Below, piece after piece: positions 2-25,039 of a stretch of 25,039 nt of DNA. The translations under genes and the position numbers were made by a program. The notes beneath the pieces were generated by a model, which was not told where the DNA came from, did not search any database, and was given only the letters and a program-made list of their open reading frames with translations. The stretch comes from Chthonomonadales bacterium (lineage in GTDB: Bacteria; Armatimonadota; Chthonomonadetes; Chthonomonadales; Chthonomonadaceae). Each line of letters starts with the position of its first letter. Position 1 is the first letter of the stretch. The stretch covers positions 1-25,039 of the forward strand of contig JBBQPO010000056.1 in the NCBI GenBank assembly GCA_038217285.1. The letters are read 5' to 3'.

Positions 2-1203
<1,202 letters not shown>

Positions 1204-1236
1204 ACGCACCGCGGGATGCCGGAGAGGGGAAGAACG

Positions 1237-1944: not shown

Positions 1945-1970
1945 TTGACCGTTTGATTTGCCAAAATGTT

Positions 1971-2492: not shown

Positions 2493-2531
2493 ACGTTTCC
2501 CTCCCACGTTGTTTTGGAAAGGGTTTCTCTC

Positions 2532-4166: not shown

Positions 4167-4203
4167 AGAGGAGTAGCGACGCAGAGCGCGTCGCTACTCC
4201 TCT
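4167..4203. terminator. Perfect 16-bp inverted repeat between convergent genes; probable bidirectional terminator-like hairpin
   Basis: AGAGGAGTAGCGACGC (4167-4182), loop AGAGC, GCGTCGCTACTCCTCT (4188-4203). Overlaps the cas6 stop codon; no strong U-tract on either side. Confidence 0.6.
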
Positions 4204-5006: not shown

Positions 5007-5064
5007 TCTCATCCTCCAGGACATTTTTCAGGCCACAATTTCTGTCCTATTCGAGGTCGCCTCG

Positions 5065-6195: not shown

Positions 6196-6259
6196 CTATT
6201 TCCTGCGCGCATCCGACAACCGACTGGTAACGAACCGAGATGGCAGTTATCGCACCAGT

Positions 6260-8830: not shown

Positions 8831-8835
8831 GGCTT

Positions 8836-9414: not shown

Positions 9415-10805
9415 TTTTTAGCGCTCCATGCCCCAACCGCACTCTCAAGCATTACTCTGGCTTCCTCTGATATTTGCAGTGTTCCGTCCGCCTTCTCCGT
9501 GATTGCGTAATCAACGCCATTGTATTTCACGTCTGCACGCTTGCCGTGAAGCCGTCCTCTTCCAACACTGCTTTCTCCACCTAACGGGAGGTCACCCGTC
9601 CACAGATCCTTGAGGAGGAGCAACAGGAGTCCTATTTCGCTGTCCCTACCTGCGGCACTCTCGTCTTTAGATGGCTTTAGTTCGAAGTGAAGATGGACAA
9701 TGGTGGCATTATCTCCAAAAACTGGCTGTTGATTGAACAGAAACTGGTCGCGGGCTCCTCCAGTAAAACGGTCGATGCTGACGCGGGACTGTACCAGATG
9801 GTCGATCCCCTCTTTGATTTCATGTTCCCAGACCAGAAGACGGCTTGCTTTTAGCGGCTTGCCCGAGGCTCCCAATGGCCCGAAGAGCGCATCGATGATA
9901 TCGCCTGCGTCTTGTTTATTAAGCGTATTGGCAATCTTGAGGGCACGGGCGCGCATGGCACCGGCCACAGACGTTCCGGAGAGTATCGGCACATCTGGTT
10001 TCCCAGTACGCTTAGCCTTGAGATGAACCATATCCGGAGCATTCTCGCCTCGATCCACCGAGCGTATCAAGAGAGAACCGTCGAGCCAGAACTTGGCATC
10101 CAGTACAAACCTGTTGCGCCCATCCGGTAGCGGCGTCACTTTCAGTCCGGATTTCATCGACACGCGCTGCGAGATGCCTCGTGCATAGATCCAATCCGCT
10201 AAGCCTCGTGGAGTCGTCAGGTCGTATTCTCGAACCTCCCAGATCTCCACTTTCGCCCGTCCATAGCCCCTGGTCTTGCGGCCACCTACCGGAATCTGTT
10301 CCGATTCGAAGCCCAAGAGCGCTGTTGCCAATGCCGTTCTCAGCATCGTCTCGTCGTCGTCATGGCAGATCAGCAGTTCGAAAAGGAGGGGAAAGATCGT
10401 GCCTGCCGCCCAGCATTCCCGGTTGTAAAGCGCGTCCTTTACCGCTGTTCTGGATTTGGAATCCAAACGCACACCGTCGCGGACTTCGACTTCATTACCT
10501 TCACCTAGCGAATCCTCGACGATCAACGGGCTCTGGGGCTCGGCCGCATTTGTTCCGAACAGTAACTCTGCATGCCTCGCATCGATCTCCCGAAGGTATG
10601 CTCGAACGGCTCCTGCAATAGACGATCCTGTGAGAAGGGGCTTTCCTTCCAGGGCATCTGTTAGAAGCGGCAAGTCCACCTGATCGTCGTTGTCTCCATT
10701 GCTCAGGGATGCAAGGGTTTGAAGAACAAGGCTACCTTGTACAACGATTCGTTTCTTGATTTTGCGGGAGTTCTCGGGTTGCCAACTTGCGTCCGGGAGT
10801 GTCAC
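9411..10805 (-). CDS. cas7: Tandem Cas7-Cas7 (Csm3-like x2) RAMP
   Basis: Two RAMP units: PLLTGSSIAGAVRA...VGGRKTRGYG and PILSGTSVAGAMRA...VSIDRFTGGA...LGGESSVGRG. Confidence 0.9.
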   Translation of the reverse strand: MTLPDASWQPENSRKIKKRIVVQGSLVLQTLASLSNGDNDDQVDLPLLTDALEGKPLLTGSSIAGAVRAYLREIDARHAELLFGTNAAEPQSPLIVEDSLGEGNEVEVRDGVRLDSKSRTAVKDALYNRECWAAGTIFPLLFELLICHDDDETMLRTALATALLGFESEQIPVGGRKTRGYGRAKVEIWEVREYDLTTPRGLADWIYARGISQRVSMKSGLKVTPLPDGRNRFVLDAKFWLDGSLLIRSVDRGENAPDMVHLKAKRTGKPDVPILSGTSVAGAMRARALKIANTLNKQDAGDIIDALFGPLGASGKPLKASRLLVWEHEIKEGIDHLVQSRVSIDRFTGGARDQFLFNQQPVFGDNATIVHLHFELKPSKDESAAGRDSEIGLLLLLLKDLWTGDLPLGGESSVGRGRLHGKRADVKYNGVDYAITEKADGTLQISEEARVMLESAVGAWSAKK

Positions 10806-12307
10806 GGTCGCTCCTCCTTCTCTTTCTGCATTCTTGCCAGAACCGAGTCGAGGAACCGGAGCTGCCTCTTCACCTGTTCAGCCTCTGACTCGATGTGGCG
10901 CTTGCCGCCGATTTCGGGGGGCTTAGCCCGAAACTCGGCCTTCAGCGCCTTGTAACCATCCAGCCAGGAAAGGAGATCTTCTCCTCTTGTTCCCACTCTG
11001 GCCTTCCTCCACTGCAGCGCTGTTTTCGCGGTAAGATCATTGCAGAAACGCTCGATGCACGAGAGCTTCGGACTGTCCAGGAGTGTCTCATGCAGAATGA
11101 CTTCTCGCAGTCTGGCAATCTGGCTGCTATTCAACTCTTTGCGCTGCGTTCTCGTATCCGTCAACATCCTCAATACTTTCCTCGCCTGTTGCGCTTCGTT
11201 GACCCTGCGAGAGATCAAGGTTGCTACCTCGATCTCGTCCGGATCCGAAAGTGCGATGTCGGCAGCATCGCGTTTGCCATCATCCCTGGTAAGACTCCAG
11301 TGTGACGGAGGAGAAAATACCGCTAAGCGTCCAAAACCCTCTGACCGGCGCTCTCCGATCCCGTTGATTTCGAGAGCATCAATTTCGGACTCACTCAGCG
11401 ACCTGGCAGGCAGCACGAGAACGGTGCCTTGCTTGTAGGCCAGGGCCTGTGGAAGCGGAAGGCCCCAGGTTCTATTGAATGCTCCTACCGGTGTTGTTTC
11501 GATAAAGGCGTTCTCAACGCTGATTCCGTTCTTGATTGCCTGGATCAGGGTGTCCGGGGAGACCGCAAACTGACCGAGTTCATCTCTTACCAGTGCATCA
11601 CTCAATAGAAGCACGATTTGACACATGTCATGATCTTCTTCTAAGCAAAAGGGGTGTTCTTTCCAACCTTGTTCTTCTGTCCCCGACAACGTGACATTGA
11701 CTTTGCCATAACCTGCGCGCGCGGCACCGCCCAGTCTGTCGATCTCTGTCACAAGAGCACAGATCAGGTTTGCCTCCTCGGTCCTCTCGCAAAGCGCTAC
11801 AGCCTCGAACACTTGGGATGCTGCGAGCGCATCGTATCTATATACGGTGCCGCTGTCCGGCCTGGCGGTCCCGAGCCGACGGTCTCTTGTCGTATGGATC
11901 GCAAGTTGCCGCTTTATCTCTGCAGCAATCCCCTTTCCGCTCTCATCGACGGAGGCAAAGCTAGCGCCAGGGGTTTTCCATTGCAGGTCTGAACGCAGTT
12001 GCTCAACACTTCCGTCATAGATCTCATCGTCGATTGAGAGGGTATCTTTTTGTTGCCGAAGCGAAAGTGGCAGTGGCAGCGCACGGCTATCGTCCGCGAC
12101 AATATATCCGTTCAGAAAGCGCACTTGCTCCGAAAGGAAAGAACCTAAATCGGCACACGGGTCATGTCGCAACAGGGTTGAGATGAAGGCACCGCGCAGT
12201 GCACTTCCAGGAAGGTACTCGATCGAGACCGCGCTGTTTGGATCCCCATCCAATCCCGTCAGCAATGCAGGTTCCTGTAGTTCAAGCCTATACCTGATGA
12301 CAATCAT
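10802..12307 (-). CDS. csx10: Csx10-like Cas5 RAMP with C-terminal helical small-subunit (Cas11-like) domain
   Basis: YLPGSALRGA, LGGAARAGYG, LLSDALV, GAFNRTWGLP and GIGERRSEGFG motifs; helical C-terminus with LNSSQIARLRE (the Cas11 call is an inference). Confidence 0.8.
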   Translation of the reverse strand: MIVIRYRLELQEPALLTGLDGDPNSAVSIEYLPGSALRGAFISTLLRHDPCADLGSFLSEQVRFLNGYIVADDSRALPLPLSLRQQKDTLSIDDEIYDGSVEQLRSDLQWKTPGASFASVDESGKGIAAEIKRQLAIHTTRDRRLGTARPDSGTVYRYDALAASQVFEAVALCERTEEANLICALVTEIDRLGGAARAGYGKVNVTLSGTEEQGWKEHPFCLEEDHDMCQIVLLLSDALVRDELGQFAVSPDTLIQAIKNGISVENAFIETTPVGAFNRTWGLPLPQALAYKQGTVLVLPARSLSESEIDALEINGIGERRSEGFGRLAVFSPPSHWSLTRDDGKRDAADIALSDPDEIEVATLISRRVNEAQQARKVLRMLTDTRTQRKELNSSQIARLREVILHETLLDSPKLSCIERFCNDLTAKTALQWRKARVGTRGEDLLSWLDGYKALKAEFRAKPPEIGGKRHIESEAEQVKRQLRFLDSVLARMQKEKEERP

Positions 12308-12960
12308 ATCGCCCCCTCCGGAAAAAGCAACGTAGGCTTGATCACCGCGCCTGAACCCATAAGCTCCGTTGCAAGTTTGCCTCGCCCGCGGTTTCTGCCG
12401 AGCCCGCCACGCCTCAAGCAGAGCGCACAGGCCGCCAGAAGTTGCTCGTCCATCCCCTTAGGCTCCTCGGAAAGTTTCAGTTCAGCGGTGAAGGTGAGGC
12501 TGCGTAAGACTGCCCGCTCCGTACGGAGGGAGTTCTTCACCGGCACGCCGTCTTGACCAATGGCTGTCTGACGGCGAACAGTGGTCAGGGACTCCAGAAA
12601 TTCAGCCGGGCTGATCTTGTTTCCTGTTACTTGGGCGATCACCGCCTGCTGTAAATTTCCAGGCAGGGTCGCCTGCCCGACAAACAGTAGGCCCGCGTCC
12701 TCGGTTCTGCTGCCCGGAACGCCGAAGAGCCGTTTCGCCGAGAGACGTGCTGCGTCGAGGTGAGCAGAATGGGACTCTCGGAGGCCATACAGCAGGTTGG
12801 CGCACTCTTCTACCAGTAGTCCTCGCAATGTACGCCCGCGCACAGATGGCAAGCCCGAGTGCGTGTCATACTCGACTTCGGTATCAATGAGGCCGGCTAC
12901 CCCTTCTCCCGATCCAAAAGTAGTGTCGCTTAGCAGCGTTATTTTGAGTTGATAGATCAT
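12304..12960 (-). CDS. cas7: Stand-alone Cas7-family RAMP (Csm3-like)
   Basis: LKITLLSD..FGSG.G.AGLID, GLP.VRGRTLRGLL, LFG.PG, RRQTAI and GGLGRNRGRG motifs. Confidence 0.88.
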   Translation of the reverse strand: MIYQLKITLLSDTTFGSGEGVAGLIDTEVEYDTHSGLPSVRGRTLRGLLVEECANLLYGLRESHSAHLDAARLSAKRLFGVPGSRTEDAGLLFVGQATLPGNLQQAVIAQVTGNKISPAEFLESLTTVRRQTAIGQDGVPVKNSLRTERAVLRSLTFTAELKLSEEPKGMDEQLLAACALCLRRGGLGRNRGRGKLATELMGSGAVIKPTLLFPEGAI

Positions 12961-14519
12961 GGCAGTGGCACCTGGATAAAAATATCGGCCAGTTCAATGG
13001 CGTCAAACAGAGTACATTGGGCTTTGTCCCAACCATCCTGAGGATTATCAGGCGCAAGTTCCTTCTTCAGTTGGTAGAGGATTCTGAATTTCGCTACGGC
13101 CTCGGCACCGCCGCGTAACTCTTCCCGCAGAGCCTTCATCTTATTGCGCTTTTCCGACCAATCGACATCCATCTGAAAATGGCGCGTCGTCGCCTCAACT
13201 TCCTTCCAGGAGCGATAACGTTGGGTTGAGGGTACCAGGGAGACCGGACGTTGATGCAGGCTGCCTGCCGATACTGTATATTCCGTATCTCGAATCTCTT
13301 TGATGGCGGATGACAGACCGGAGAGACCAAAATGCCAATCGAGGCAGGAACCTAAAGGTCGATCTGTCTTTTTGCGGAACTCTTTGGCGCTTTTACAGAG
13401 TTCCCCCGCCATAGCATACGCGCGGGCAAAGGGATGGTGCGATTTTACGATAGCTATTCCTGCGCAGGCTGTCAATTGATCTCCAATCAGGGCTTTTCGT
13501 TCCGGTTGGTTCGTCTCCTCTTCAAAGTACTTGAGATAGAGAGTTGCCAGAGAAATCCCGACTCTGCCATCACACACAAACGTTATGTCGTCTCCGCCAT
13601 AGACCAAGGGACGGAGAGGAAGGTACTCTCTGTGCTGAGCGCCATGACCCTCCCTGACAAGCTTTATTTGAAGACGTTCAGAGTAGTAGATTCCTGCGCA
13701 ACCCCCTTCCGGAGTAGTTACAGCATCTACTAAATCAGAGATCGTCCGCTTCATTGCCGCAATCCCCGCGTCGTTCACTGCATCTGAGAATTTCTTGAGA
13801 GCGTCGAGATAAGCGTCGTTCTGGTCTGGCTTTGGGTAGTGGTCTGCGATCTTTTGAAGCTGTTTGCCCATAGCGTTTCCGTCGGCGTGAACAATAGCAA
13901 TATAGCTCTGTTCCTCGATTGTCCGTCCGAGTTTGTCCAGGTCCTTGGGAAACGAGTACTCGCGAGCCACAAACTTGTCTTTAAGATCGTCGTCGGCATT
14001 GTCCGCAGCGTTTTCCTTCGCCAACACTTCTGCAGAAGCCTCGATAAGACGCTTGCTTCCTGGCTCCGGGCGAAATCCGACGGCAGCCAGACCAGTAGAC
14101 CGACACGCGCGGGTGATACCATATCCCAGAGCCGGACTGGTTCTTACTCGGGTGCGCTTCATGCCGTCGATCCGTTTCTGTATGGCAGGGAAGACGGTCT
14201 TTGCCATGCTGTCTGCGGCGAAATCGAATGGCTCGTGTGCCACAATCAGGTTTAGACCAGGAGCTTCCAATATCGCCTTCCGGGTCAACTCCCGTTCAAA
14301 TGCATCGGCCTCGGGTTGCGTATCAAAACATACCGCGAAGTTGCCGCCGCCTGCGTAGAGAGTTCTGGCCTTCCCATGGGATGCCGTCACCGCCGCCGTT
14401 TCCGCCCAGGGTCCTGTAGCGCACTTCACCAGATACGACGCTCCAATGTTTTCGCGCAGTCGGTTCGATCCGAATATGTAGGACTGAACCCCTGATGTGT
14501 CAACAAATGTGAGTATCAT
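12957..14519 (-). CDS. cas10: Type III-D Cas10 (Palm cyclase/polymerase, no HD domain)
   Basis: Begins MILTFVDTSGVQSYIFGSNRLRENIGAS; YAGGGN, IVHADGNAMG and LVYGGDDITFV (GGDD), AGIAIVKSHHPF motifs. Start ATG 14519 overlaps the upstream stop (ATGA); the track extension to 14681 lies inside the upstream gene. Confidence 0.93.
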   Translation of the reverse strand: MILTFVDTSGVQSYIFGSNRLRENIGASYLVKCATGPWAETAAVTASHGKARTLYAGGGNFAVCFDTQPEADAFERELTRKAILEAPGLNLIVAHEPFDFAADSMAKTVFPAIQKRIDGMKRTRVRTSPALGYGITRACRSTGLAAVGFRPEPGSKRLIEASAEVLAKENAADNADDDLKDKFVAREYSFPKDLDKLGRTIEEQSYIAIVHADGNAMGKQLQKIADHYPKPDQNDAYLDALKKFSDAVNDAGIAAMKRTISDLVDAVTTPEGGCAGIYYSERLQIKLVREGHGAQHREYLPLRPLVYGGDDITFVCDGRVGISLATLYLKYFEEETNQPERKALIGDQLTACAGIAIVKSHHPFARAYAMAGELCKSAKEFRKKTDRPLGSCLDWHFGLSGLSSAIKEIRDTEYTVSAGSLHQRPVSLVPSTQRYRSWKEVEATTRHFQMDVDWSEKRNKMKALREELRGGAEAVAKFRILYQLKKELAPDNPQDGWDKAQCTLFDAIELADIFIQVPLP

Positions 14520-15907
14520 GCGGTCTTTCCCTCCTCTTCCACAGTCTTGATCCAGTTCTTGATGTGGTCGTGCAAACCCAGCAGGTGGTCGATCCCAAAA
14601 ACCCGAATCTTCGACTTCTCGCTTAGAATGTTGCTTGCTTCCTTTTCGAGGTTCAGACAATCTGCCCTTCTGAGGAGACACACGAAGGCAACTCGTGCCT
14701 CATCGCCGCCAATCTGACGGGCCCGCATGATTGCTTCGAAGAGTTTCCACTTCGCGCGTCCCTCACCCTCATTGATTTCCCGTTCGATAGCACATGAGAA
14801 ACCGAAGAGTTGGTAGCCTCTGATTCCGAGTACATCCAGTTCAAATTTTATATCTTTGAAATTCGGGTAGGTAGGTTCGATGTTAATGCACATGTCGTGC
14901 ATTCCGAATCCGCCGTTTTTGTTCGCCTGCTTCAAACAGTGCAGAGTGTAGTGTTCCAGCCATTTTCCGCAGATCCATTCATAAAAGGTATTGATGAAAC
15001 CGACGGAGCCCACCGGCTTGCTTGCAACAAGATCCAAGTGGTTTACATTGAACGGAAGTTCGGTTCTCAGCACGTCGCGGAGGTCTACAGACAGGCCAGA
15101 AAGATCAACCGGTTGATAGGCAGCAAGATTCGCCTCCAGTTCCGATAAATACCGGGGATCATCGGACCTTAATCCTGGTTTTGCCGCTTTAAGGTGGTCT
15201 GCTATCCCTTTACTATTTTTTTCACTTTTGAATCTTTGACCGGCATATCGTCCGTCTTTAAAGTCTAGCCAGGCATGGAGTTGTGGCCCGCCAGCCTTGC
15301 TGATTCTCGCAAGTTCGACAGCGGTTTTGGGTAAGAATACCGTCTCTTGAGGCCGGCCGTTCTTGAATTTGCCCCCGTGTAGACCTAGCATTCCGGCCAG
15401 AGAGACCTGATCAGCCTGCATATCGATGTAATCTTCTTCATTGCCGGACGATGGATCTTCCATATCAAAATAGAGCCGCAGATTACGCGCACTCAGGTAG
15501 CTGAGGAGCGGCTTCCCCTTGTTGGGTGCCCAATTGGAGACAACACGATGTGCGTGAACGGCCATCGCTTTCGTCCCGGTGGTGTAGTGAAGTCCAGCAC
15601 GTTTCCCAGGGTGCAGGGCAAGCGCATTTGAAACTACCGTGCAGATACTCGACTGTCGCGATTCATCCATCAGTTCCTGGAACACTCCCACACGAACCCC
15701 TTGTCCAGCCAGTTTTTGCTCCAGGTACGGTAGAAGATAGTCAGCGCCTATCTCTTTCGTGCCTTCCGTGCATAACATTGTCACCACGCCGCCAGCCTTG
15801 ACAAGGCGTGACGCAGTGACGGCATTTGGTAGAGTATTGCCTCCAATCAGCAGAAGTAGATGCTCCGCTTTGTAATGTTCCAGGTCGTTGATGTCGATTT
15901 CGGGCAC
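14516..15907 (-). CDS. CARF + PD-(D/E)xK-type nuclease effector, Can2/Card1 (DUF1887)-like
   Basis: CARF motifs HLLLLIGGNTLPN and GLHYTTGTKAMAV; nuclease motifs GKWLEHY, FELDVLG...LFGFSC and RARQIGGDEA. Start GTG 15907 with AAGGAGG upstream (track start 16033). Confidence 0.8.
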   Translation of the reverse strand: MPEIDINDLEHYKAEHLLLLIGGNTLPNAVTASRLVKAGGVVTMLCTEGTKEIGADYLLPYLEQKLAGQGVRVGVFQELMDESRQSSICTVVSNALALHPGKRAGLHYTTGTKAMAVHAHRVVSNWAPNKGKPLLSYLSARNLRLYFDMEDPSSGNEEDYIDMQADQVSLAGMLGLHGGKFKNGRPQETVFLPKTAVELARISKAGGPQLHAWLDFKDGRYAGQRFKSEKNSKGIADHLKAAKPGLRSDDPRYLSELEANLAAYQPVDLSGLSVDLRDVLRTELPFNVNHLDLVASKPVGSVGFINTFYEWICGKWLEHYTLHCLKQANKNGGFGMHDMCINIEPTYPNFKDIKFELDVLGIRGYQLFGFSCAIEREINEGEGRAKWKLFEAIMRARQIGGDEARVAFVCLLRRADCLNLEKEASNILSEKSKIRVFGIDHLLGLHDHIKNWIKTVEEEGKTA

Positions 15908-16152
15908 GAGTGCCTCCTTCTTCTCTCTGAATGCCCAGATGTTCAAATGTGTGACGTGGGATGGAACTTTTCCTGAATTGGATTCCGGCGAGAGGAACAG
16001 TATTGCCTGGTAGATTTGCCGGACTATCTGCATTTACCTGCGTGGTAATCCGGAAAAGCGGTCAAATTATCCAAAATATTTAAGGAGGCTGGCATTTTAA
16101 TTGTTTTTGTGAGGGATGAAACTTTTCTGGGCGCGTTGCTGTCAGTGGTTGT

Positions 16153-16433
16153 GCGGATGGGCATACGCTGTTTGCTCATTCGCGGTGCGCACCTCCGTGC
16201 GCTGATTCGAAAGCGGGTTCTCAAAAACCCGCGCCTTTAGAAACGGTCTGTGTCTTCGCTCGATGAGACAGGCCGACCTGTCAGATCTCTCCGCACATGC
16301 GGTGAGGTTTGTAAGCCTCGTGTTTGAGTTAGCTTTACGAAGCACTCAATCGCAGGCTGAACACAACCTGAAACACCGGCCTTACATCGCCCCGCGAATT
16401 CCCTCGCTTTGGGGTGCTGACGGCTCACAGGTT
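16153..16433 (+). ncRNA. Candidate structured non-coding RNA / 5' leader of unknown family
   Basis: Four consecutive hairpins (16153-16183, 16187-16202, 16213-16232, 16244-16275) followed by a multi-branched domain closed by 16278-16284/16417-16423. Several non-Watson-Crick positions read as G-U on the + strand. Folded by eye only. Confidence 0.5.
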
Positions 16434-16469
16434 GCTAACAGGAAGTTCATTCTAAAGGGGAACCGAATC

Positions 16470-17186
16470 ATGCGCCGCAATCTCACTCTCAATCCGCTCG
16501 CCGATCAGATCCGATGCCATCTGCATCTCAACGTCACACCCCGCGTTTCCGGATACTGGAATCGCATGGCGAAGGCGTGTTCACGTCGCCCTGATCGCTA
16601 TCGCTTTTATCACCCAGACTTCGATCAGTTCGATATCCATATGGTGGACGAAGTCATGGAGTATCTCGCTGCCTGCGGCTACGACCCGCTTCTGCCTCTT
16701 GCGAATCATCTCAAGCGGGCGGAACGCCTTCTGTGGAGCTTCTGGAAGAAAAACGTTCATCTGGAGCGTTGGGCCTGCCGGATCACTCCGCTCTCTCTGG
16801 ATCAACAGTTAGAAGAGCACGGCGACACTGCGCTGGAAGGCGCACTCGATCTTCTGGATCGTCCTCTGGCAGACATGGACCGCTACTTCGACTCAAACTG
16901 TGAACAACGCACTTTTATGGCGTTGCGGGAGGAAGGGTGGCCGAAGATAAAAGCAGAAGTGGTCGTGATGAAGGTCTTCGAGGGATATGACTACAAGACG
17001 CTTGCGGAATACCTTCAGATCGTGGAGGCTCAGGCCGTTCTCCCCGCCACTATCCGACAGTGGGTCAGCCGCGATTTCAAACAGGTAGGGCGTAGAATTC
17101 TGCCCAGAGTTCTGGAGTGGGAGCCGCCGCCAGAGGATCTTCGCCCCGACCGCCGTCACAAACCCAGGCGTTCCAGGCATTCTTAA
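16470..17186 (+). CDS. Divergent sigma70-family-like protein (region 4-type HTH)
   Basis: PLSLDQQLEEHGD resembles the sigma 'SLD' linker; KAEVVVMKVFEGYDYKTLAEYL...ATIRQWVSR resembles a sigma region-4 HTH. Start ATG 16470 after AAAGGGG (track start 16263). Region 2 not clearly recognised. Confidence 0.55.
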   Translation: MRRNLTLNPLADQIRCHLHLNVTPRVSGYWNRMAKACSRRPDRYRFYHPDFDQFDIHMVDEVMEYLAACGYDPLLPLANHLKRAERLLWSFWKKNVHLERWACRITPLSLDQQLEEHGDTALEGALDLLDRPLADMDRYFDSNCEQRTFMALREEGWPKIKAEVVVMKVFEGYDYKTLAEYLQIVEAQAVLPATIRQWVSRDFKQVGRRILPRVLEWEPPPEDLRPDRRHKPRRSRHS

Positions 17187-17269
17187 TCAATAGCGGAGAC
17201 AACCAGCCGATGGAAAGGCTCCGAGATCATCCTACGAATCAGACTCGACCGTTTAGAAAGGACATCGTT

Positions 17270-18844
17270 ATGAACACCGAAACCCGCAATGGCAACTATA
17301 GTAACGGCATCACTTCACTTCCTGCTCGTCCGGATTCTGACGATGTCACGGTCGTCGTTGCGCCTTCCGAGGTTCGCTCCAACATGCCTGTTGTTGCACA
17401 GACAGTGGAGGCGCGCAATACCAACAGTCTTCTGACCCGGCTACGCGATAAGTGGGGCAACCGTCTTCCCGAATCGTTCGCCGCCTCTGTACCCTTTCTG
17501 CCCAACAAGCCTCTGGAGGAGTCGCCGCTGGCCTCTACTTTTGCCGTCATTGCAGCGGAGCGGCCTGGGCAGGCAGGCCGTTTGGCTGCGCTCTATGAGC
17601 GCCTTATGCAGGCGCTGGACCGCCTGATCGCCGTTCGCGCCGAGGAAGAGGCCCAGATAGAAGCCTGCAATGGGCGCGTGATGAGTCGAAAGGCCGCCAT
17701 CTCCGGCGAACAGGCCCGCCTCGAAGCGGCGCGCGACGCGGTGCAGCCCGAAGTCCGAAGCGACCTGAAGGACATCGAACCCGTGCTGGCTGCCGCGCAT
17801 GAGGAGGCGACGCATAAAGTCGCGGCAACGGGCGGAACCTACGATCCCGATATGCCTTCCGATGCGTGCGTGCTGCGCCATGCCCACAAACCCCAGGAGG
17901 TCGCCGCCGCTCATCTGCGCCTGCCCTGGATACCGGGAGATGCCGTGTATGCCTGGGTGCATCGGCTGAGCTGGGCGCTGACCCTTTTGGTCGGCGCATG
18001 GATCGGCCTCTCCATCGGCTTCGTCACGGGTATCGTACATCCGGGCAGTCTCGACCGTGAATGGCCCCAGGCCGTGCTGCTGTTCGTGCTGGGGCAGGTC
18101 GTCTCGGTGCCGGCCTACCTGGGAATCTTCCATACCTTCCGCATCGCCACCCAGCGCTACTATTTGGACCATAAGCCCCTGAGTTGGGCGCCCTTCGCCG
18201 CTCTGGGTGTCGCGGCTTCTCTCGCCATCGTCTGCCTTTGCGCCAACACCGACCGCCTGGGTCTGGTCCATTTGATCCAACTCAACGATGCCACCGCTGC
18301 GCTGGACGGTCAGCAGCATACGTCCGCCAACGATATGGGCTACTGGCTTGTCGCCCTGCTCGTCTCCGTTCCCTTTGCCATCGCCACCGCTGCCGAGGCT
18401 TATCTCAGCGGCCGCAGAACGGCCGTCCCCAACCGGATCGAGGCAGAGCGACACGACCACTTCCAGCAGACCGACACCGCCAGACGCGCCGAACCGGTCG
18501 TGCAGGAGGCGCTTCGTGTTATCGCCTATGTGAACGAGATCCTGCGCCGCCAGTCGGCACTCCGGACCCAACTGGACGCAGGCGAAGCGCCTTTCACCCG
18601 CAAACTCGACGCGCTTACCGCCGAATCCGGAAGCCTGCAAGAGACGCATGCGCTGGACGACGCAGCCCTGCGCCGCATTCAGGACGCCCATGACAACGCC
18701 CAGTGGGCGCAACTCTGGCTAGATTTCGAGATCGAATGGGCGCTGGATGAATGCGAACCCTCCCACAGTTTTTGGCGGCGGCTGAGACGCGCCCTGTTCC
18801 GCCCGCGCGCCCCTCGTCGCTTTTCGCGCTCCAAGCGCCGCTAA
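17270..18844 (+). CDS. Uncharacterised membrane protein: coiled coil, ~4 TM helices, coiled coil
   Basis: Heptad-rich segments flank hydrophobic helices (LSWALTLLVGAWIGLSIGFVTG; AVLLFVLGQVVSVPAYLG; PFAALGVAASLAIVCLCA; YWLVALLVSVPFAIATAA). Start ATG 17270 after AGAAAGGA. Confidence 0.7.
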   Translation: MNTETRNGNYSNGITSLPARPDSDDVTVVVAPSEVRSNMPVVAQTVEARNTNSLLTRLRDKWGNRLPESFAASVPFLPNKPLEESPLASTFAVIAAERPGQAGRLAALYERLMQALDRLIAVRAEEEAQIEACNGRVMSRKAAISGEQARLEAARDAVQPEVRSDLKDIEPVLAAAHEEATHKVAATGGTYDPDMPSDACVLRHAHKPQEVAAAHLRLPWIPGDAVYAWVHRLSWALTLLVGAWIGLSIGFVTGIVHPGSLDREWPQAVLLFVLGQVVSVPAYLGIFHTFRIATQRYYLDHKPLSWAPFAALGVAASLAIVCLCANTDRLGLVHLIQLNDATAALDGQQHTSANDMGYWLVALLVSVPFAIATAAEAYLSGRRTAVPNRIEAERHDHFQQTDTARRAEPVVQEALRVIAYVNEILRRQSALRTQLDAGEAPFTRKLDALTAESGSLQETHALDDAALRRIQDAHDNAQWAQLWLDFEIEWALDECEPSHSFWRRLRRALFRPRAPRRFSRSKRR

Positions 18845-18881
18845 AACGAACCTAGATTTTTGAGGAAAGGAAACAACTCCC

Positions 18882-19541
18882 ATGAAAACCAGAACTCTTA
18901 CCACTCGAACCCGCCGCATACTCGCACCGTTGTGTTGCCTCTTCTGTCTGGCGCTTCTGGACGGCTGTGGCTCGCGTCAGCGGCTGACTCCAGTGGCGTC
19001 GTTCGTGGGGGTCGATGCTTCCGTCAGTACGCGCCACTGCCAGCCTGCGTATGTCGCCCTGATTTCCGGCTACACCGGTCGCCTGGAGCCCGACTGCGAT
19101 CATCTCACCATCTACCGCGTCGAGAGGCAGACCTTCGAGATATTCGATGACCGCGCCCCTGGCAATCAGGAAGCGATGCAGGCACGCATGGTCGCTCAAC
19201 TGCGCAAACATCCACGCGAGGACGGAACGTATCCTGCGCTCTTCTGGAAAACCGTTGCAGAACGTGCGGAACACGCTTCCGGGAAAGTCCTGGTCACGCT
19301 CTACTCGGATGGAGATAACGACGACCAGACCGAAACCGCCCGTGAGACCATCCGGGCCGCAGCGCGCCGCCTCGCCGCCAATCCCCATGTCGTCGCGGTA
19401 GCCATCTGTGGCGTCAATCCCGACAACCGGGCGGCGCTCCGCAGACTCTTCCAGCCGTGCGGTGATCGTCTCCTGCTCTTCGGCCCGGATCAACTCGATC
19501 AAAACACGCTCCATCGTCTGCACGCACTCGTTCAGCGCTGA
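18882..19541 (+). CDS. Predicted lipoprotein with vWA-like (MIDAS) domain
   Basis: Basic N-terminus, hydrophobic stretch and lipobox-like LLDG|C; MIDAS-like VGVDASVS (DxSxS), DGT and LYSDG motifs. Confidence 0.7.
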   Translation: MKTRTLTTRTRRILAPLCCLFCLALLDGCGSRQRLTPVASFVGVDASVSTRHCQPAYVALISGYTGRLEPDCDHLTIYRVERQTFEIFDDRAPGNQEAMQARMVAQLRKHPREDGTYPALFWKTVAERAEHASGKVLVTLYSDGDNDDQTETARETIRAAARRLAANPHVVAVAICGVNPDNRAALRRLFQPCGDRLLLFGPDQLDQNTLHRLHALVQR

Positions 19542-19607
19542 CTTCTCAAATAGAATGATCCCGCAAATTTCGCGCTTGTTCGTGCGCGAAATGGAAAGGA
19601 TCAGGTT

Positions 19608-20900
19608 TTGCGGGAAAGGTTAAGAAAATCGATGAATCCACCGACCTATGGCGCTGTAGAGGAGATAACATCCGTCTGGTATGGCGGCGCGGCCGCAGCT
19701 ACCGCTGTCGTGAAGCGCGGACCTGTCGTGCCGCCCTTACCCAGCCTCGGCGCATCAACGCTCCTGCCGGGAACGCTGCTGGCAGGGCGCTATCGGCTGG
19801 AACAGTCGCTGGGCGAAGGTGCCTTCGCCCGCGTCTATGCCGCCTGGGACAGTGCGCTCCACCGCTGGGTGGCTGCGAAAATCTCCCCTTCGGCAACCGG
19901 CGGACAGCTCTCGGCGGGCGAAGCCCAACTCCAGGCCGCCTGTCAGCATCCGAACCTCATGCCCCTCTATGATGCAGGGAGCGACCCGCTGCTCGGCGTC
20001 GCCTACATCATCATGCCCCTCTATCCCGGCTCCGATCTGGCCGCCACTCTCAACCGCTATGGCCCCATGCCCTTCCGCACGGCCCTCCTCTGCACCGATC
20101 AGGTCTGCAGCGCCCTGGAGTTTCTCCAACAGCGGCGCAATGCCGTGCATGGCGACATTAAACCGGCCAACATCTGGCTCACCAACAGCGGCGCAGCCCT
20201 CCTCATGGATTTCAACCTCTATGGCCTGCTCACACAGGGTGACTGTCTCCGGGCCGGCACACCGGGCTATACCGCTCCCGAGGCCTTGATGGGACGGATG
20301 GACGCCCGTTCCGACGTTTTCTCCCTTGCCTGCGTCCTCTACCAGTGCCTTGCCGGAAGCCCTCCCTTCACCGACGATGCTGCGGTTCAGGCCGGACAGT
20401 TCACTCCGCTAAGACGCCTCCGCCCTGACCTGCGCCCGGAACTCGAAGCCGTCATTCATCGCGCCCTGGCCCGGCAGCCCGAGCAACGTTTCCAATCCGC
20501 ACGAGAGTTTCAGACCGCCCTACGCCGTCCCGACACTGCGGGTCTGGAGGGACGTATCGCTCTCAACACCATCTTTCGCACATTGATGAGAATCGCCCGA
20601 CAGCTCGGCCGCATGCTCGCCGCCGTCTATCGCCTTACCTGGCGGATGCTCACAAAGTTTCTGCGTCATGCCGTCCATCGCCCCCTCCCTGCCCTTATCG
20701 AAGCCGTCGTTTTCTGCATTCTCAGCCGCGCTGCGCTCGACATGGCGCGCCAAGCCGGCCTCTACTGGTGGAGGCTTCATCAAGGCGACGTAAAGACGGT
20801 CGCTTGGGGTGCACTCTCCCTTGGCGTCGTATCCCTCGTCGGCACGATAGCAAAACCATTTCTGACCCGTCGTAACGCGCAGAGGAGAGCAAAACAGTGA
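19608..20900 (+). CDS. Hanks-type Ser/Thr protein kinase with C-terminal membrane helices
   Basis: LGEGAFARVY, VAAK, HPNL, HGDIKPANI, MDFN, GTPGYTAPE, SDVFSLAC and PEQRF subdomain motifs; two hydrophobic C-terminal segments. Start TTG 19608 or ATG 19632. Confidence 0.92.
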   Translation: MRERLRKSMNPPTYGAVEEITSVWYGGAAAATAVVKRGPVVPPLPSLGASTLLPGTLLAGRYRLEQSLGEGAFARVYAAWDSALHRWVAAKISPSATGGQLSAGEAQLQAACQHPNLMPLYDAGSDPLLGVAYIIMPLYPGSDLAATLNRYGPMPFRTALLCTDQVCSALEFLQQRRNAVHGDIKPANIWLTNSGAALLMDFNLYGLLTQGDCLRAGTPGYTAPEALMGRMDARSDVFSLACVLYQCLAGSPPFTDDAAVQAGQFTPLRRLRPDLRPELEAVIHRALARQPEQRFQSAREFQTALRRPDTAGLEGRIALNTIFRTLMRIARQLGRMLAAVYRLTWRMLTKFLRHAVHRPLPALIEAVVFCILSRAALDMARQAGLYWWRLHQGDVKTVAWGALSLGVVSLVGTIAKPFLTRRNAQRRAKQ

Positions 20901-23770
20901 ACATCAACCGTCCCAAAAACGCCGTCAGCCCCGCCGACAACCGCGCCACTGTGGTCGTTGCCGCGGCCCAGGGCGTTCAGCTGCGTATCCTGAACGGACC
21001 GGAAGCCGGTCGCCTGATCCCCGCCACAGAATTTCCCTGCCGTCTCGGAAGAGGAGACAACTGTCGCGTCGTTCTTGCTGATCCCGACGACCCACCCGCC
21101 CTCTCTCGTGAACACGCCACCCTCTCCCGACCCCGGCGTCACGCGGGCGAAATTGTCGTCACCGATCACAGCCGCAACGGCACCTGCGTCGGCGGCCAAT
21201 GGCTCGCCTCCGGCGAGGCCGAACTGCTGATGCCAGGCGAAACGCTCCAACTCGGTCCTACCCTGCGCCTCCTTCGAGAACATGCGTCCGGCCCAACCTA
21301 TCCCGCGACGGTCATGGTCCCGGAGCAAAAAGCGCAGGATCTCCCGCCGCCTGTCCCTGCAGACCTCCGGGCATTTCTGACGATGCCCGAAACATTACAG
21401 GCAGCCTGGCGGCGAGTCGCCCTGAACCGGGGCGCAGCCGGGCCCGACAACGTCACCCTCCAGGAGTTCGCCCAGACCGCCGACCGCCGACTGACCGTCC
21501 TGCGCAGCGATCTGATGCGCGGACGCTACCAACCCCTGCCGCCCCGCCTGTTCGCCGCCCCCAAACGCAGCGGAGGCGTCCGCGCCATCGCCATCCTCTC
21601 CATCCAAGATCGCATTGTCCAGCAGGCCCTGCACTCCGCCCTCCAACCTCATCTGGAGCGCTTCTTTCCGCCGTGCAGCTATGCCTACCGCCCCGGCGTC
21701 TGTGCCCACCATGCGCTGCGCCGCGTCGATACTCTCTTGAGGGAAGGCCAGACCTGGGTCGCGGAAACCGACATCGCCGGCTTTTTCGACACGATCCAGC
21801 ACACGCTCCTGCTCGAAAAGCTCACGGCCCGTATTCCCGATCCTTTCCTCCTCTCCCTCGTTGCCCGCTGCCTGGCGGTCGGTGCCAGGGCTCCCGGCAT
21901 CGGTATCGCGCAGGGCGCAGCCACCTCTCCCCTCTTCAGCAACCTCTATCTCGCGGAGTTCGATGCCGCCATGCTCGCCGGGGGCTGGAACCCCGTCCGA
22001 TACGGCGACGATCTCCTGTTCCCCGTGCGCGAACGCCATCGCGCCAGGGCTGCGCTCGCCGAAGCCGAAGGCTTCCTGCGTTCTCGCCTGCATCTGACCG
22101 TCAAACCCGAGAAGACAGGTGTCGTCTGCCTCGCCCAGGGATTTACCTTCCTCGGCTTTCACTTCACCGAAGCCGGACGGCAGGCCGCGCCCCAGGCCGT
22201 CGCCCAACTCACCGAACGCCTGCAAGCGGCCACGCCCGAAGCGGCTCCTGCCATCGTTCGCGGCTGGAAAAACTATTTTGGAGCCGAGCCTGACTCCGTC
22301 ATGCCGCAGACTATAATAGAGGAACACATCCCTCCTACACCGCAGGCTGCCTCGGACTATGACGACCAGCCGCCTCGACCGGACGCCATCCCCCTGGTCT
22401 CATCCGCCTTCGCCGCGCTGGACGCCGCCGACATTGCGCGGTTCCTGGCCCTCTTCGGCGGACGCGAAGACCTCATCGCTCGGCAAAGTGGCCAGGGTAG
22501 CCGACCCCGCTTCACAGCGAGCCACGAAAGCCTGTCCCCTGAAAGTGTTCGCCGCCACCTCGCCGGCCTGGAGACCCTGGCCACCTACCTCGTTCGCCTC
22601 GATGGAACGGTTCGTCATCTTGTCTTCGACATGGATATTGCCCAACCACCTGGACGCCCTGCCGCGCAGGAGACCGAAGACCGGGAAGGCATTCAAGACG
22701 TGAAGGCCTTTGCCGAGGACATCTACCGTGTCTGTCGCTCCCTCGGTCTCCCTGCTTGCCTCGAAGACAGCGGTCGGCGCGGGCGGCATCTCTGGATCTT
22801 CTTCTCCGAAGGAGTTGCGCCGGAACGGGCACGGCGTTTGGCGCGCTTGCTATCGTTGCGCGCGGGCTTTCCCCGTGACGGCGTTCGGCTCGAAATCTTT
22901 CCTCGCCATACCGACTGGCCCGGCCCTGAACTGGGTGACGCCGTCAAACTCCCGTTCGGTGTCCATCCCGCCACGGGACGCCGCTGCTTCTTCCTGGATG
23001 CCTCCGGCGAGCCGATCCCGGATCCCGCCGCAGCGCTGGAGCGCATTCGAACCGTCTCCCCCGCAGAAGTGGAAGGACTCATTACCGTCCTCTCCCAGCT
23101 CGAAACCGCCGGAGCAACAGAGCAAAACCTGCCGCCACGAAAAGACACTGTCCCTCCAAGCGCCGTCGATAAACTGGTCTCCGGATGTTCCGTCATCCGG
23201 ACGCTGGTCCAGCGCGCCCAGCAGACCGGCCATCTGCGCCATACCCACCAGCTCATTCTTCTCTATACGGCCGGACGCCTCGGCCCCGAAGGCGCGGCCT
23301 TTCTGCATCGAACCATTGCCAACTGCCGCAACTACGACGCCGGCATCTGTCAGGGCTACATTGATCGCCTGGAACAGAATCATCCCCCACTCGGTTGCCG
23401 CCGTATCCGCGAATGGCTGGAGGAAGAGGGCGAATCCGCGCTCTGTACTTGCCCTGCCGCACGTCGAACGCCCCTCGAACTCACCACCACGGAAACCGTA
23501 GAGGACGCCCTCGCAGCAAAGCTGAAAAAGCCGCGTTCGCCCCGCGCCCAGGCCTGCCAGACACCGCTGCCCACCGAGGTCCACTCGGCTCTGTGGCAGG
23601 AAGTCGCCGACGATCTCTTCGCCGAGGAGACCGTCGAGACTGTCCTCCCTTCCCCAGATCCAGACGAGGCCTGTCTTTCACATGCGCAGGACGACGGTCT
23701 TTTTCTGCCGGATGATTTTAACGCCCAGGCGACGGAGGCGACGGAGCCTCAGAAGGAATTGGACCTATGA
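20897..23770 (+). CDS. FHA - group II-like reverse transcriptase - AEP primase-polymerase (CAPP) - Cys-rich PriL-like CTD fusion
   Basis: FHA: LGRG..C, LSREHA, SRNGT. RT: AWRRV..NRGAAGPD, PKRSG..R, DRIVQQA, SYAYRPG, DIAGFFD, GIAQG..SPLFSNLYL, RYGDD (22001-22012), FLGF, RGWKNYF. AEP: F.GRED, VFDMD (DMD at 22628-22636), EDSGRRGRHLWIFF, EIFP, VKLPFGVH. CTD: CSVI...CRNYD...C.RI...CTC. Confidence 0.88.
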   Translation: MNINRPKNAVSPADNRATVVVAAAQGVQLRILNGPEAGRLIPATEFPCRLGRGDNCRVVLADPDDPPALSREHATLSRPRRHAGEIVVTDHSRNGTCVGGQWLASGEAELLMPGETLQLGPTLRLLREHASGPTYPATVMVPEQKAQDLPPPVPADLRAFLTMPETLQAAWRRVALNRGAAGPDNVTLQEFAQTADRRLTVLRSDLMRGRYQPLPPRLFAAPKRSGGVRAIAILSIQDRIVQQALHSALQPHLERFFPPCSYAYRPGVCAHHALRRVDTLLREGQTWVAETDIAGFFDTIQHTLLLEKLTARIPDPFLLSLVARCLAVGARAPGIGIAQGAATSPLFSNLYLAEFDAAMLAGGWNPVRYGDDLLFPVRERHRARAALAEAEGFLRSRLHLTVKPEKTGVVCLAQGFTFLGFHFTEAGRQAAPQAVAQLTERLQAATPEAAPAIVRGWKNYFGAEPDSVMPQTIIEEHIPPTPQAASDYDDQPPRPDAIPLVSSAFAALDAADIARFLALFGGREDLIARQSGQGSRPRFTASHESLSPESVRRHLAGLETLATYLVRLDGTVRHLVFDMDIAQPPGRPAAQETEDREGIQDVKAFAEDIYRVCRSLGLPACLEDSGRRGRHLWIFFSEGVAPERARRLARLLSLRAGFPRDGVRLEIFPRHTDWPGPELGDAVKLPFGVHPATGRRCFFLDASGEPIPDPAAALERIRTVSPAEVEGLITVLSQLETAGATEQNLPPRKDTVPPSAVDKLVSGCSVIRTLVQRAQQTGHLRHTHQLILLYTAGRLGPEGAAFLHRTIANCRNYDAGICQGYIDRLEQNHPPLGCRRIREWLEEEGESALCTCPAARRTPLELTTTETVEDALAAKLKKPRSPRAQACQTPLPTEVHSALWQEVADDLFAEETVETVLPSPDPDEACLSHAQDDGLFLPDDFNAQATEATEPQKELDL

Positions 23771-24762
23771 TTACCCTCTATGTCAAGGAACAGGGAGCGG
23801 GCATCCGCCGATCAGGCCAGCGTCTTATCGTCTACAAAGGTGAGAGCATACTGCAAACCGTTCGCCTCCGGGAGGTAGAGCGCGTTGTCCTTATAGGAAG
23901 CATTGATGTGTCTGCATCGTCTCAGTTAGCGTTGCTGGAAGCAGGCGTCGAAACGGTGCTCCTTTCCTACGGCGGACGATTTCGTGGCAGACTCTGTCCG
24001 GCAGAAGGCCGCAACGTGTTTCTCCGGCAGACCCAGTTTCACCGCTACGACGACACCGCCTTTCGGCTCCGAATCGCGCAGACGCTCGTAGACGCCAAGA
24101 TTCGCAACGGGCGATTCGTATTGCAGCGTTATTATCAAAACCATGCGGAACCCGCGTTAGCGGCGGCTATAGAACGGATGCAGCGCAGCCGATTGCAAGT
24201 CCAAAAGCAGGCAAACATCGAAGCCCTCCTGGGCGTAGAAGGGGACGCCGCGCGGGTCTATTTCGCCGCATTCGGGGCCATGATGCGTGCAGAATTCGTT
24301 TTTACCCTTCGCTCTCGGCGTCCGCCCCGTGACCCGGTCAACGCCCTTCTGAGCTTCGGCTACACCCTTCTCACTACGGAACTCACGGGATCTGTGGCCG
24401 CGCAGGGCCTCGATCCCTATGTCGGAGTGCTCCATGATCTCGACTACGGTCGCCCCTCTCTGGCGCTCGACCTGCTGGAAGAGTTTCGGCAGCCGGTCAT
24501 AGATCGCCTGGTCCTGAGTCTGATCAATCGGGGCGTTATGAAACAGGCAGACTTCGACGATCGGGGTGAGGCAGGGGTTTGGATGTGCGACGAAGGGCGT
24601 ACCCGTTTTCTGGACTACTACCACCGTGCACTGGAGACGCCCTTCGAGGACAGAACAGTGGGCGGCAAAACGACATTTCGCGATCTTCTGATGCGGCAGG
24701 CCCAACGAATGCGAGCCGCGCTACAAGGCGAGAGTGAATACGAGCCTTATACTCCGCGATAA
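23767..24762 (+). CDS. cas1: CRISPR-associated integrase Cas1
   Basis: LLGVEGDAARVYF, RRPPRDPVNALLSFGY, GLDPYVGVLH and SLALDLLEEFRQPVID motifs; ATGA overlap with the upstream fusion gene. Confidence 0.96.
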   Translation: MITLYVKEQGAGIRRSGQRLIVYKGESILQTVRLREVERVVLIGSIDVSASSQLALLEAGVETVLLSYGGRFRGRLCPAEGRNVFLRQTQFHRYDDTAFRLRIAQTLVDAKIRNGRFVLQRYYQNHAEPALAAAIERMQRSRLQVQKQANIEALLGVEGDAARVYFAAFGAMMRAEFVFTLRSRRPPRDPVNALLSFGYTLLTTELTGSVAAQGLDPYVGVLHDLDYGRPSLALDLLEEFRQPVIDRLVLSLINRGVMKQADFDDRGEAGVWMCDEGRTRFLDYYHRALETPFEDRTVGGKTTFRDLLMRQAQRMRAALQGESEYEPYTPR

Positions 24763-24791
24763 TCTCCATAAGGAGACAAGAGGATCTGCCC

Positions 24792-25039
24792 ATGCCTCAG
24801 ACAACAAAAACGCGCTATGTCCTTTCCTACGATGTGACCGACGACAGCAACCGGACGAAATTGTCGAGGCTACTATTGGACTACGGCGAACGTATTCAAA
24901 AAAGTGTGTTCGAAGCCGATTTAAGCGCCGGAGAAATGCAGGAGATTCTGATAAAGGCGGCGAAATACCTTTCTGACAGCGACAGTTTGCGATTCTATCC
25001 CCTCTGTCGCACCTGCGCAGGGAAGGTAGTTTCCTTAGG
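24792..25039 (+). CDS. cas2: CRISPR-associated Cas2 (3' truncated by window)
   Basis: Hand translation: MPQTTKTRYVLSYDVTDDSNRTKLSRLLLDYGERIQKSVFEADL...DSLRFYPLCRTC; YDV, R.QKSVFE and DSLR.Y are Cas2 signatures. Not in the ORF track. Confidence 0.93.
   Translation, partial: MPQTTKTRYVLSYDVTDDSNRTKLSRLLLDYGERIQKSVFEADLSAGEMQEILIKAAKYLSDSDSLRFYPLCRTCAGKVVSL

Follow-up and report, generated by a model that had tools for sequence, protein, structure and literature searches.

Adaptation by CRISPR systems with a linked reverse transcriptase (RT) can take spacers from the cell's own RNA, and hence needs restraint. Fusions of an RT to a CRISPR-associated primase-polymerase (CAPP) are already known (PMC8211822, PMC10415136), and CAPPs are reported to bind Cas1-Cas2 (PMC8211822). 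The window analysed here -- the whole 25,039-nt contig JBBQPO010000056.1 (G000:C56) from the 6.2-Mb, 459-contig genome of a Chthonomonadales bacterium (assembly GCA_038217285.1) -- encodes a protein of this family. Its closest described relatives, the CART-CAPP or CAPP_A "CAPP-RT" proteins such as CCJ33120 of Caloramator australicus (PMC8211822, PMC10415136), likewise combine an RT, a primase-polymerase (Prim-Pol) and a cysteine-rich C-terminal domain (CTD) in one protein, with cas1 and cas2 adjacent, in type III loci; the fusion described here adds to these an N-terminal FHA domain with a threonine motif, a dedicated kinase encoded upstream, and intact-looking AEP motifs. Kinase, FHA-RT-CAPP fusion, cas1 and cas2 make up a four-gene type III adaptation module, a recurrent and apparently undescribed variant of the CART-CAPP module with its own kinase-FHA pair. 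The reading preferred here, drawn by analogy and held with moderate confidence, is that the kinase phosphorylates or docks the FHA-RT-primase and so gates spacer acquisition at the membrane.

In TIFA-ALPK1, a Thr just before the FHA domain is read by that domain once phosphorylated; the pair is eukaryotic, with an alpha-kinase, and serves as a model for oligomerisation in trans only. The actinobacterial PknG-GarA/OdhI pairs come nearest to a working model for this locus; an intramolecular closure of the FHA protein reportedly takes part in them. There, according to PMC8546545, autophosphorylated N-terminal Thr residues of PknG anchor the FHA domain, after which the FHA protein receives a phosphate on an N-terminal Thr of its own. 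A Thr-bearing disordered kinase N-terminus and a Thr in the FHA partner's N-terminal extension appear to recur in the present locus, a resemblance between sequences only; unlike in PknG-GarA, the FHA domain here shares one polypeptide with a DNA polymerase, and transmembrane (TM) helices anchor the kinase, which has no TPR or rubredoxin domain.

The modes of CRISPR control found in the literature, those of DdvS and CASK, act on transcription. CASK (Csx33-Csx34; bioRxiv 10.64898/2026.08.25.746378) is also a Ser/Thr kinase of a CRISPR locus that phosphorylates its neighbour on Thr, but it belongs to type VI-A, its kinase-TPR protein is activated by CCA RNA from Cas13, its substrate is a helix-turn-helix transcription activator, and its described sections include no FHA domain or adaptation enzyme; the locus here is type III-D, with no Cas13 and, in a Pfam scan, no TPR match on the kinase. 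If the preferred reading is true, the kinase-FHA switch would amount to post-translational control of CRISPR memory formation, exerted on the adaptation enzyme itself, and one possible use would be a signal-gated RNA recorder. No description of such control was found in the literature searched. Full-text searches, which covered few subscription papers, returned no FHA- or kinase-linked adaptation module, and term searches found neither "FHA" nor "kinase" in the main texts of PMC8211822, PMC10415136 or the 2025 classification (PMC12669027). The supplement of PMC10415136 has no FHA-named entry, while the supplementary hit list of PMC8211822 contains two rows named "FHA domain-containing protein", from Capsulimonas corticalis and Candidatus Poribacteria.

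The FHA-RT-CAPP fusion

The fusion gene (957 aa; 20,897-23,770, + strand) encodes, in this order, an FHA domain (20,975-21,271; Pfam FHA over residues 49-120, E 1.9e-9, with a match to the Dun1 FHA in the PDB, E 0.005), a group II-like RT domain (21,374-22,276; RVT_1 over residues 222-423, E 5.1e-27, with D292 and RYGDD at 368-372), and an AEP primase-polymerase followed by a cysteine-rich CTD (together 22,418-23,479; AEP-TOTE, E 1.5e-29), the latter with C764, C810, C834, C850 and C852. Residues 508-861 match NF040561, CRISPR-associated primase-polymerase A1, with 227.5 bits against a cutoff of 200. As in CART-CAPPs, the RT lies N-terminal to the AEP Prim-Pol and CTD in one protein, and cas1 and cas2 adjoin it in a type III locus, both in the window (cas1 at 23,767-24,762, Pfam Cas_Cas1, E 5e-93; cas2 at 24,792-25,039, cut by the contig end, Pfam CRISPR_Cas2, E 5.5e-19; both on the + strand) and in homologous loci. 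The gene directly after the fusion is cas1 in all eight homologous FHA loci that extend past it, and in a ninth by way of an overlapping contig (L038). Identity as a group II intron was considered and rejected: there is no Rfam family match in the window, nor one in L115 or L116, and TIGR04416 scored 233.7 bits, below its cutoff of 300.

With residues 1-500 as query, 66 matches were obtained, about 30 of them with an FHA-RT(-AEP) layout; one family member is encoded by a cultured species, Capsulimonas corticalis (P0010, CCAX7_35690; name per NCBI). The GR, SxxH and NG residues of FHA domains bind phosphothreonine. In an alignment of 27 full-length fusions, 36-62% identical to the window protein, all three motifs are kept in every member, G51, R52, S70, R71, H73, D90, N94 and G95 being invariant, and a phosphothreonine-binding domain is predicted. 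The catalytic aspartates of the RT are nearly as constant (D292 and D371 in 27/27, D372 in 26/27), and in the AEP part D578, D580 and H631 are invariant, as are five cysteines, with D681 present in 25/27. The AEP motifs DxD (D578xD580), SGxxGxH and D681 are thus all kept in the fusion, as motifs that do not in themselves imply activity; two CART-CAPP primase domains that were tested proved inactive (PMC10415136).

The contrast between these intact motifs and the two inactive primase domains bears on an alternative in which the kinase does gate the fusion, with the fusion being a defence effector that synthesises DNA, in the manner of the primase-RT hybrids DRT7/UG10, and taking no part in spacer acquisition. 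RT-plus-primase proteins with abortive-infection activity have been described, and there is a weak match of the AEP part to the RT_UG10 profiles of PADLOC (E 6e-19). The order RT, AEP, cysteine-rich CTD is nevertheless that of CART-CAPPs, the best-matching profiles are those of a CRISPR RT and an adaptation PrimPol, and cas1 follows directly in each of the nine loci just mentioned, so that we regard this alternative as very unlikely.

Just N-terminal of the FHA domain, 20 of the 27 fusions carry a motif [DEN]xRxT, in the window DNRAT at residues 14-18 (20,936-20,950, + strand); an N-terminal extension of at least 10 residues is present in 24/27. The shorter RxT occurs in 21 fusions, and the residue is Thr in 21/21. 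Elsewhere the strict motif is found in 0/27 FHA-RT linkers, 0/27 RT-AEP linkers and 1/27 tails, and shuffled sequences averaged 0.70 occurrences, with at most 5 in any of 5000 shuffles, all these counts being taken over related, not independent, sequences. All four Thr codons are in use for the motif Thr across ten loci and the linker next to the motif has a mean identity of only 13%; the constraint on the motif therefore acts on the protein. Thr18, which had not figured in the preliminary description of this DNA, is a candidate phosphorylation site.

In a sister clade of RT-CAPP proteins (P0033, P0035-P0037, L091:463-3078 and L121:4548-7210; here and below, L marks loci and G genomes), an N-terminal membrane anchor replaces the FHA domain; the five anchor-bearing members in the tree form one group (100/100), and in L121 and L091 the TM-anchored protein precedes cas1. 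Taken together, the FHA-kinase form and the TM-anchored sister form suggest that the adaptation enzyme works at the membrane, though for the location of the fusion itself the anchor is only an analogy. Homology between the membrane tail of the kinase and this anchor was looked for and rejected: hhalign gave a probability of 0.84% and a score of 15.1, where the highest of 60 column shuffles scored 13.5. Members of a further clade (P0038-P0040) carry TPRs between RT and AEP, and in L020:9064-13871 and L122 divergent RT genes are fused straight to the CAPP CTD, with the AEP missing; one of these precedes cas1.

The membrane kinase and its linkage to the fusion

The kinase gene (422 aa; 19,632-20,900, + strand) encodes a Hanks-type Ser/Thr kinase (Pfam Pkinase, E 1.8e-31). 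Its catalytic motifs, aligned with those of a set of 11 kinases, are all present -- the Gly loop at 60, the VAIK Lys at 80-83, the alphaC Glu at 97, Asp-Lys-Asn at 173-180 and APE at 215 -- and the DFx motif at 193 reads DFN, not DFG. An RD motif marks the activation-loop-regulated class of kinases; the present one is non-RD, HGD being invariant in an 8-row alignment and HSD standing in its place in two other kinases. At the C-terminus an amphipathic stretch is followed by two TM helices, 351-369 and 389-407, and the TM topology of the window protein leaves no extracellular or periplasmic sensor domain. The disordered N-terminus contains a WYG-type motif preceded, at a distance of one to three residues, by a Thr; a pattern search detects it in 10/12 kinases that have an N-terminus, and in the L118 kinase it is seen by eye only, the register of the motif varying between kinases.

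The kinase gene lies directly upstream of the FHA fusion in 9/9 homologous loci with upstream sequence, one of these kinases being broken. The nine (L016, L026, L035, L036, L037, L115, L117, L118 and L119) represent six genome families and three metagenome contigs, after removal of duplicates (L027=L117, L018=L026, L019=L028), of L039, which begins inside the RT, and of RT-only matches. In the window the kinase and fusion genes share a 4-nt start/stop overlap (GTGA, 20,897-20,900), as do the fusion and cas1 (ATGA, 23,767-23,770), both just as in the preliminary description; a 4-nt kinase/fusion overlap is present in 6/9 loci with an intact kinase, including the window, and the other three have gaps of at most 30 nt. 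Orthologues of the kinase were found in 9 of 401 genomes of the phylum, all at CRISPR loci and seven of them beside the fusion or a remnant of it. The FHA-less relatives L121, L091, L020, L122 and L028 show no FHA or kinase match (upstream sequence in L091 being only about 460 nt), and the genomes of four FHA-less relatives have no kinase orthologue, the best match having E 2.7e-51 against 7e-201 for a true orthologue.

A model of the complex between kinase residues 1-305 and fusion residues 1-130 scored 0.51, against 0.00 for the best control, with at least 79% of contacts shared between runs and a partner pLDDT of at least 83. The mark was reached by 116/157 solved and 2/215 mismatched pairs, with 18 of the solved pairs and both mismatches at 0.60 or below. 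The model lends weak support to the pairing, to which likeness to solved kinase-FHA pairs may contribute. The preliminary description had proposed that kinase and FHA domain couple signalling to the RT-primase and Cas1-Cas2, and this proposal is strengthened by the 9/9 adjacency, the invariant residues predicted to bind phosphothreonine and the candidate phospho-Thr before the FHA domain. Its comparison with the H1 type VI secretion system (H1-T6SS) fares less well. The TagQRST-PpkA-Fha1 pathway of that system joins a membrane kinase to an FHA protein, with an ABC transporter, a phosphatase and a periplasmic kinase domain; no T6SS genes, ABC transporter or phosphatase were found among the 20 window proteins scanned, the kinase here is without the periplasmic domain of PpkA, and PknG-GarA is the better fit.

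According to the preferred reading, the membrane kinase would autophosphorylate a Thr in its own N-terminal extension, and the FHA domain of the fusion would dock there, bringing the RT-primase to the membrane. The kinase would then phosphorylate Thr18 of the fusion, and phospho-Thr18 would fill an FHA pocket either in cis, leading to release or closure, or in trans, leading to an oligomer, its state affecting whether Cas1-Cas2 receive prespacer DNA from the RT; activation, in response to envelope stress or infection stress, is the favoured outcome. This scheme is built on gene order, on the intact catalytic and phosphothreonine-binding motifs, on the two conserved Thr-bearing extensions and on the linkage of the kinase to the FHA form, and it names exact residues, K83 and D175 of the kinase and R52, S70 and T18 of the fusion. 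That the kinase gates the fusion in some form, with or without a sensor encoded by the genes upstream, is considered quite probable.

Several observations weigh against this scheme. Seven of the 27 fusions are without the strict motif, three of them with truncated N-termini. Two genomes, G316 (93% complete) and G298 (87% complete), both in about 800 contigs, have a CRISPR locus with the kinase intact and no fusion found, and the kinase may therefore have other targets. In L118 the kinase is broken, with its activation segment lost and a stop in its tail, and L120 is a decayed locus. Because all FHA members lie on one side of a single tree branch (support 94/91), the ten loci count as a single inherited coupling, not as independent events, and genomic context covers only these ten of a family of about 30 proteins. 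Finally, a lipoprotein, a TM protein, a kinase and an FHA substrate are exactly the layout of GlnH-GlnX-PknG-GarA, and such genes do adjoin the kinase in the window and three homologues, as discussed in the next section.

Some of these points would suit an alternative in which the kinase is an ancillary type III defence or regulatory protein, abortive-infection-like or acting on effector or CARF proteins, with the FHA domain reading some other host or phage phosphoprotein and the adjacency inherited. Two CRISPR loci have the kinase only, placed straight after the cas6 of a III-D operon in the first and immediately ahead of an array in the second; the best PADLOC rows for the kinase are PD-T4-6 kinases (E 1e-57, a generic kinase-domain match); and L118 retains the FHA domain beside its broken kinase. 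On the other hand, kinase and fusion are translationally coupled, FHA-less relatives have no orthologous kinase, the fusion itself carries the Thr-only motif, and kinase, FHA and RT were lost jointly in the L038/L119 allele pair, all of which makes this quite unlikely. Least credible of all is an absence of any functional coupling, the kinase and FHA domain having been captured once from a signalling locus and kept by linkage: the single origin of the FHA group and the decayed or deleted versions in L118, L120 and L038 would agree with it, while the invariant phosphothreonine-binding residues, and a Thr motif kept at the protein level through all four codons beside so variable a linker, would not.

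In the decayed locus (L120:661-3735) a single frame, interrupted by two TGA stops, spans the kinase, the membrane tail and the second half of the RT-CAPP; the FHA is missing, as is half of the RT. The flanks of L119 and L038 are 100% identical, and a stretch of about 2.87 kb that takes in most of the kinase, FHA and RT is absent from L038, which is either a deletion allele or an assembly artefact.

The sigma-like, four-TM and vWA genes

Upstream of the kinase, on the same strand, lie three genes, of which the preliminary description took the last two for an envelope sensor. The first (238 aa; 16,470-17,186) had been called sigma-like, a label with weak backing only, from a Pfam Sigma70_r4_2 match (E 0.043), with no match to region 2, and from Foldseek, where the top five rows are ECF SigH proteins (E 0.04-0.25) on a low-confidence model (pLDDT 59.5); it is probably a divergent ECF-sigma-like regulator of the vWA/TM cassette. 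A homologue search with this protein found nothing but the query. The second (524 aa; 17,270-18,844) encodes a protein with helical N- and C-terminal regions and four hydrophobic segments within residues 238-374, a constant partner of the vWA protein; it matched no family of Pfam, NCBIfam or PADLOC, and what it did match were unnamed Atlas clusters and, faintly, a single PHROG of unknown function. The third (219 aa; 18,882-19,541) was described as a vWA lipoprotein, and here the fold and the MIDAS stand: Pfam gives no match, but the AlphaFold2 model (pLDDT 96.5) resembles vWA domains with E 8e-9, and the residues of the MIDAS, DxSxS..T..D, are kept, the D in 96, S in 97, S in 87, T in 98 and D in 100 of 100 rows. 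The protein is membrane-anchored and probably a lipoprotein, with an atypical lipobox (LDGC, Cys29). Its family, with 288 clusters at 50% identity, is far larger than that of the fusion.

As a general rule the envelope front end finds no support. Of the nine loci, L035 begins inside the kinase and was left out of the upstream-neighbour count, and parts of the cassette stand beside the kinase in only three of the eight informative homologues: L115, with sigma-like and vWA regions in one frame followed by the TM gene; L026, with the TM tail at the contig edge; and L037, with sigma-like and vWA regions in one frame, divergent from the kinase. In the other five, including the close relative L036, a cas6 or CARF gene precedes the kinase, so that among homologues of the fusion the kinase was found throughout, and the refuting condition set in the preliminary description, loss of the neighbours, applies to the vWA/TM genes in most lineages and not to the kinase. 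The TM family occurs in 31/401 genomes (20 genomes with weak partial matches were left out of the locus comparison) and in only 3/9 kinase-positive ones, and no vWA orthologue was found in the 5/5 kinase-positive genomes tested (87-96% complete), with none in G042, G069 and G317 and weak partial matches in G065 and G398. At all ten further TM loci a vWA gene lies upstream of the TM gene, the reverse of the TM-vWA order of the window, and there is no orthologous kinase; a TrwB-type ATPase and Replic_Relax directly follow the pair in 4/10, with the ATPase nearby in two more. Five of the ten have CRISPR genes or arrays, and others type I restriction genes and recombinases. The cassette is read as a regulator-vWA-TM unit in its own right, belonging to the mobile defence islands in which these CRISPR loci lie, and may be a component of the surface or of transfer; it is not the obligatory sensor of the kinase, and the envelope front end is optional at best.

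A full envelope relay, of the kind put forward in the preliminary description, would have the vWA lipoprotein sense a surface signal, the four-TM protein relay it to the kinase, the kinase switch the fusion, and the sigma-like protein drive the operon. In its favour, cassette parts adjoin the kinase in the window, L115 (sigma-like, vWA and TM), L026 (TM tail) and L037 (sigma-like and vWA), the kinase has no sensor domain of its own, and the vWA-TM pair lies near CRISPR genes or arrays in 5/10 other loci. The window genome has no such coupling ATPase or relaxase by tblastn, and L115 and L116 are also without both, which could mean co-option; because the window genome lacks them, use of the cassette as a sensor there is conceivable. 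There are precedents in GlnH-GlnX-PknG-GarA, where lipoprotein and TM genes lie beside the kinase as in some loci here, and in DdvS/DdvA (PMC6061681), where an ECF-type sigma factor and membrane proteins are likewise linked to a type III(-B) locus; in the latter, as described, control is transcriptional, whereas here the case for a sigma factor is weak and no anti-sigma turned up. Against the relay stand the cas6 or CARF gene before the kinase in 5/8 loci, the differing gene order and the divergent arrangement in L037, the scarcity of TM and vWA orthologues in kinase-positive genomes, and the 10/10 loci in which the vWA-TM pair occurs without the kinase, often with the TrwB-type ATPase and Replic_Relax. 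Measured against GlnH-GlnX-PknG-GarA, the lipoprotein and TM genes are not conserved with the kinase, being absent beside it in five of the eight informative homologues, the kinase is not a TPR-bearing soluble protein, and the lipoprotein has a vWA fold and is not a solute-binding protein like GlnH. The relay is accordingly judged unlikely.

Its fullest form, a surface-to-genome relay, is equally doubtful: here the MIDAS vWA lipoprotein and the four-TM protein would sense phage attachment or mating contact and activate the non-RD membrane kinase, which would phosphorylate the FHA-RT-primase, so that RNA-to-DNA spacer writing would take place only on infection and at the membrane, the sister lineage having reached the same location by fusing its RT-primase to a membrane anchor.

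Sigma-like homologues lie upstream of vWA in L115, L037 and L154. The shared open frame in L115:12375-13808 and L037:3-1370 (- strand) encodes either a membrane-tethered sigma fusion or in-frame neighbours, the two genes being separate in the window and L154. A recurrent module of vWA, four-TM, TrwB-type ATPase, Replic_Relax and zinc ribbon genes with recombinases (L154, L158-L162) is found next to genes of type III CRISPR or type I restriction systems and has the look of a family of integrative mobile elements. The vWA-TM contig and the kinase contig of G316 do not overlap. In G011 an unrelated kinase - vWA - FHA cluster (L021:2570-7995) lies about 2.3 kb from an RT gene.

The rest of the locus and its spacers

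The seven genes from the sigma-like gene to cas2 are present as first described, all on the + strand, stop-free and of the lengths given; apart from the two overlaps, their junctions are gaps of 83, 37, 90 and 29 nt. They diverge, again as described, from a type III-D interference operon on the - strand (4,194-16,033), confirmed by profile searches: CARF-PD-D/ExK, cas10 (GGDD), RAMPs, csx10, csx19, TIGR03986, CARF-RelE and cas6. The GC content of this operon is 49-56% (bins from 5 to 16 kb), against 61-67% in the kinase-fusion region. Among relatives the effector genes lie upstream or downstream of the adaptation module and on either strand, and the module therefore moves as a unit. A scan for promoters and terminators did not rise above chance (2 against 1.8, and 7 where 7.7 would be expected). 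Contigs from a second study cover pieces of the locus from the kinase to cas2; positions 16,005-19,689 are uncovered, which is no evidence of absence.

No CRISPR array or notable repeat lies within the window, and its end overlaps no other contig. An orphan array, G000:C73:1-1450 (L024), begins at a contig edge; its repeat is 37 nt long and ends in ATTGAAAC, and its 19 spacers measure 32-45 nt. It probably belongs to this locus, because an array follows cas2 in L016, L035, L038, L116 and L118, though two DNA runs did not connect the contig with an array. No self-match of the C73 spacers exceeds 19 nt. C74 carries a type I-E system that is separate and has an array of its own. When the spacers of L024, L016, L035, L038, L116, L118 and L128 were compared, 12/58 were antisense to a Shine-Dalgarno sequence plus ATG, against 2/58 on the same strand and 0/51 in the array of the type I-E system. 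It was the C73 array (6/19) that first drew attention to this pattern; the other arrays gave 6/39 against a dinucleotide-shuffle mean of 2.1 (p 0.009), and one possible cause is that mRNA start regions are targeted or acquired. The locus is flanked, at 181-4,133 of the window on the + strand, by mreB and by genes for an unnamed protein that looks secreted, for a small membrane protein whose N-terminus has a cysteine-rich stretch, and for a TPR-aspartyl protease.

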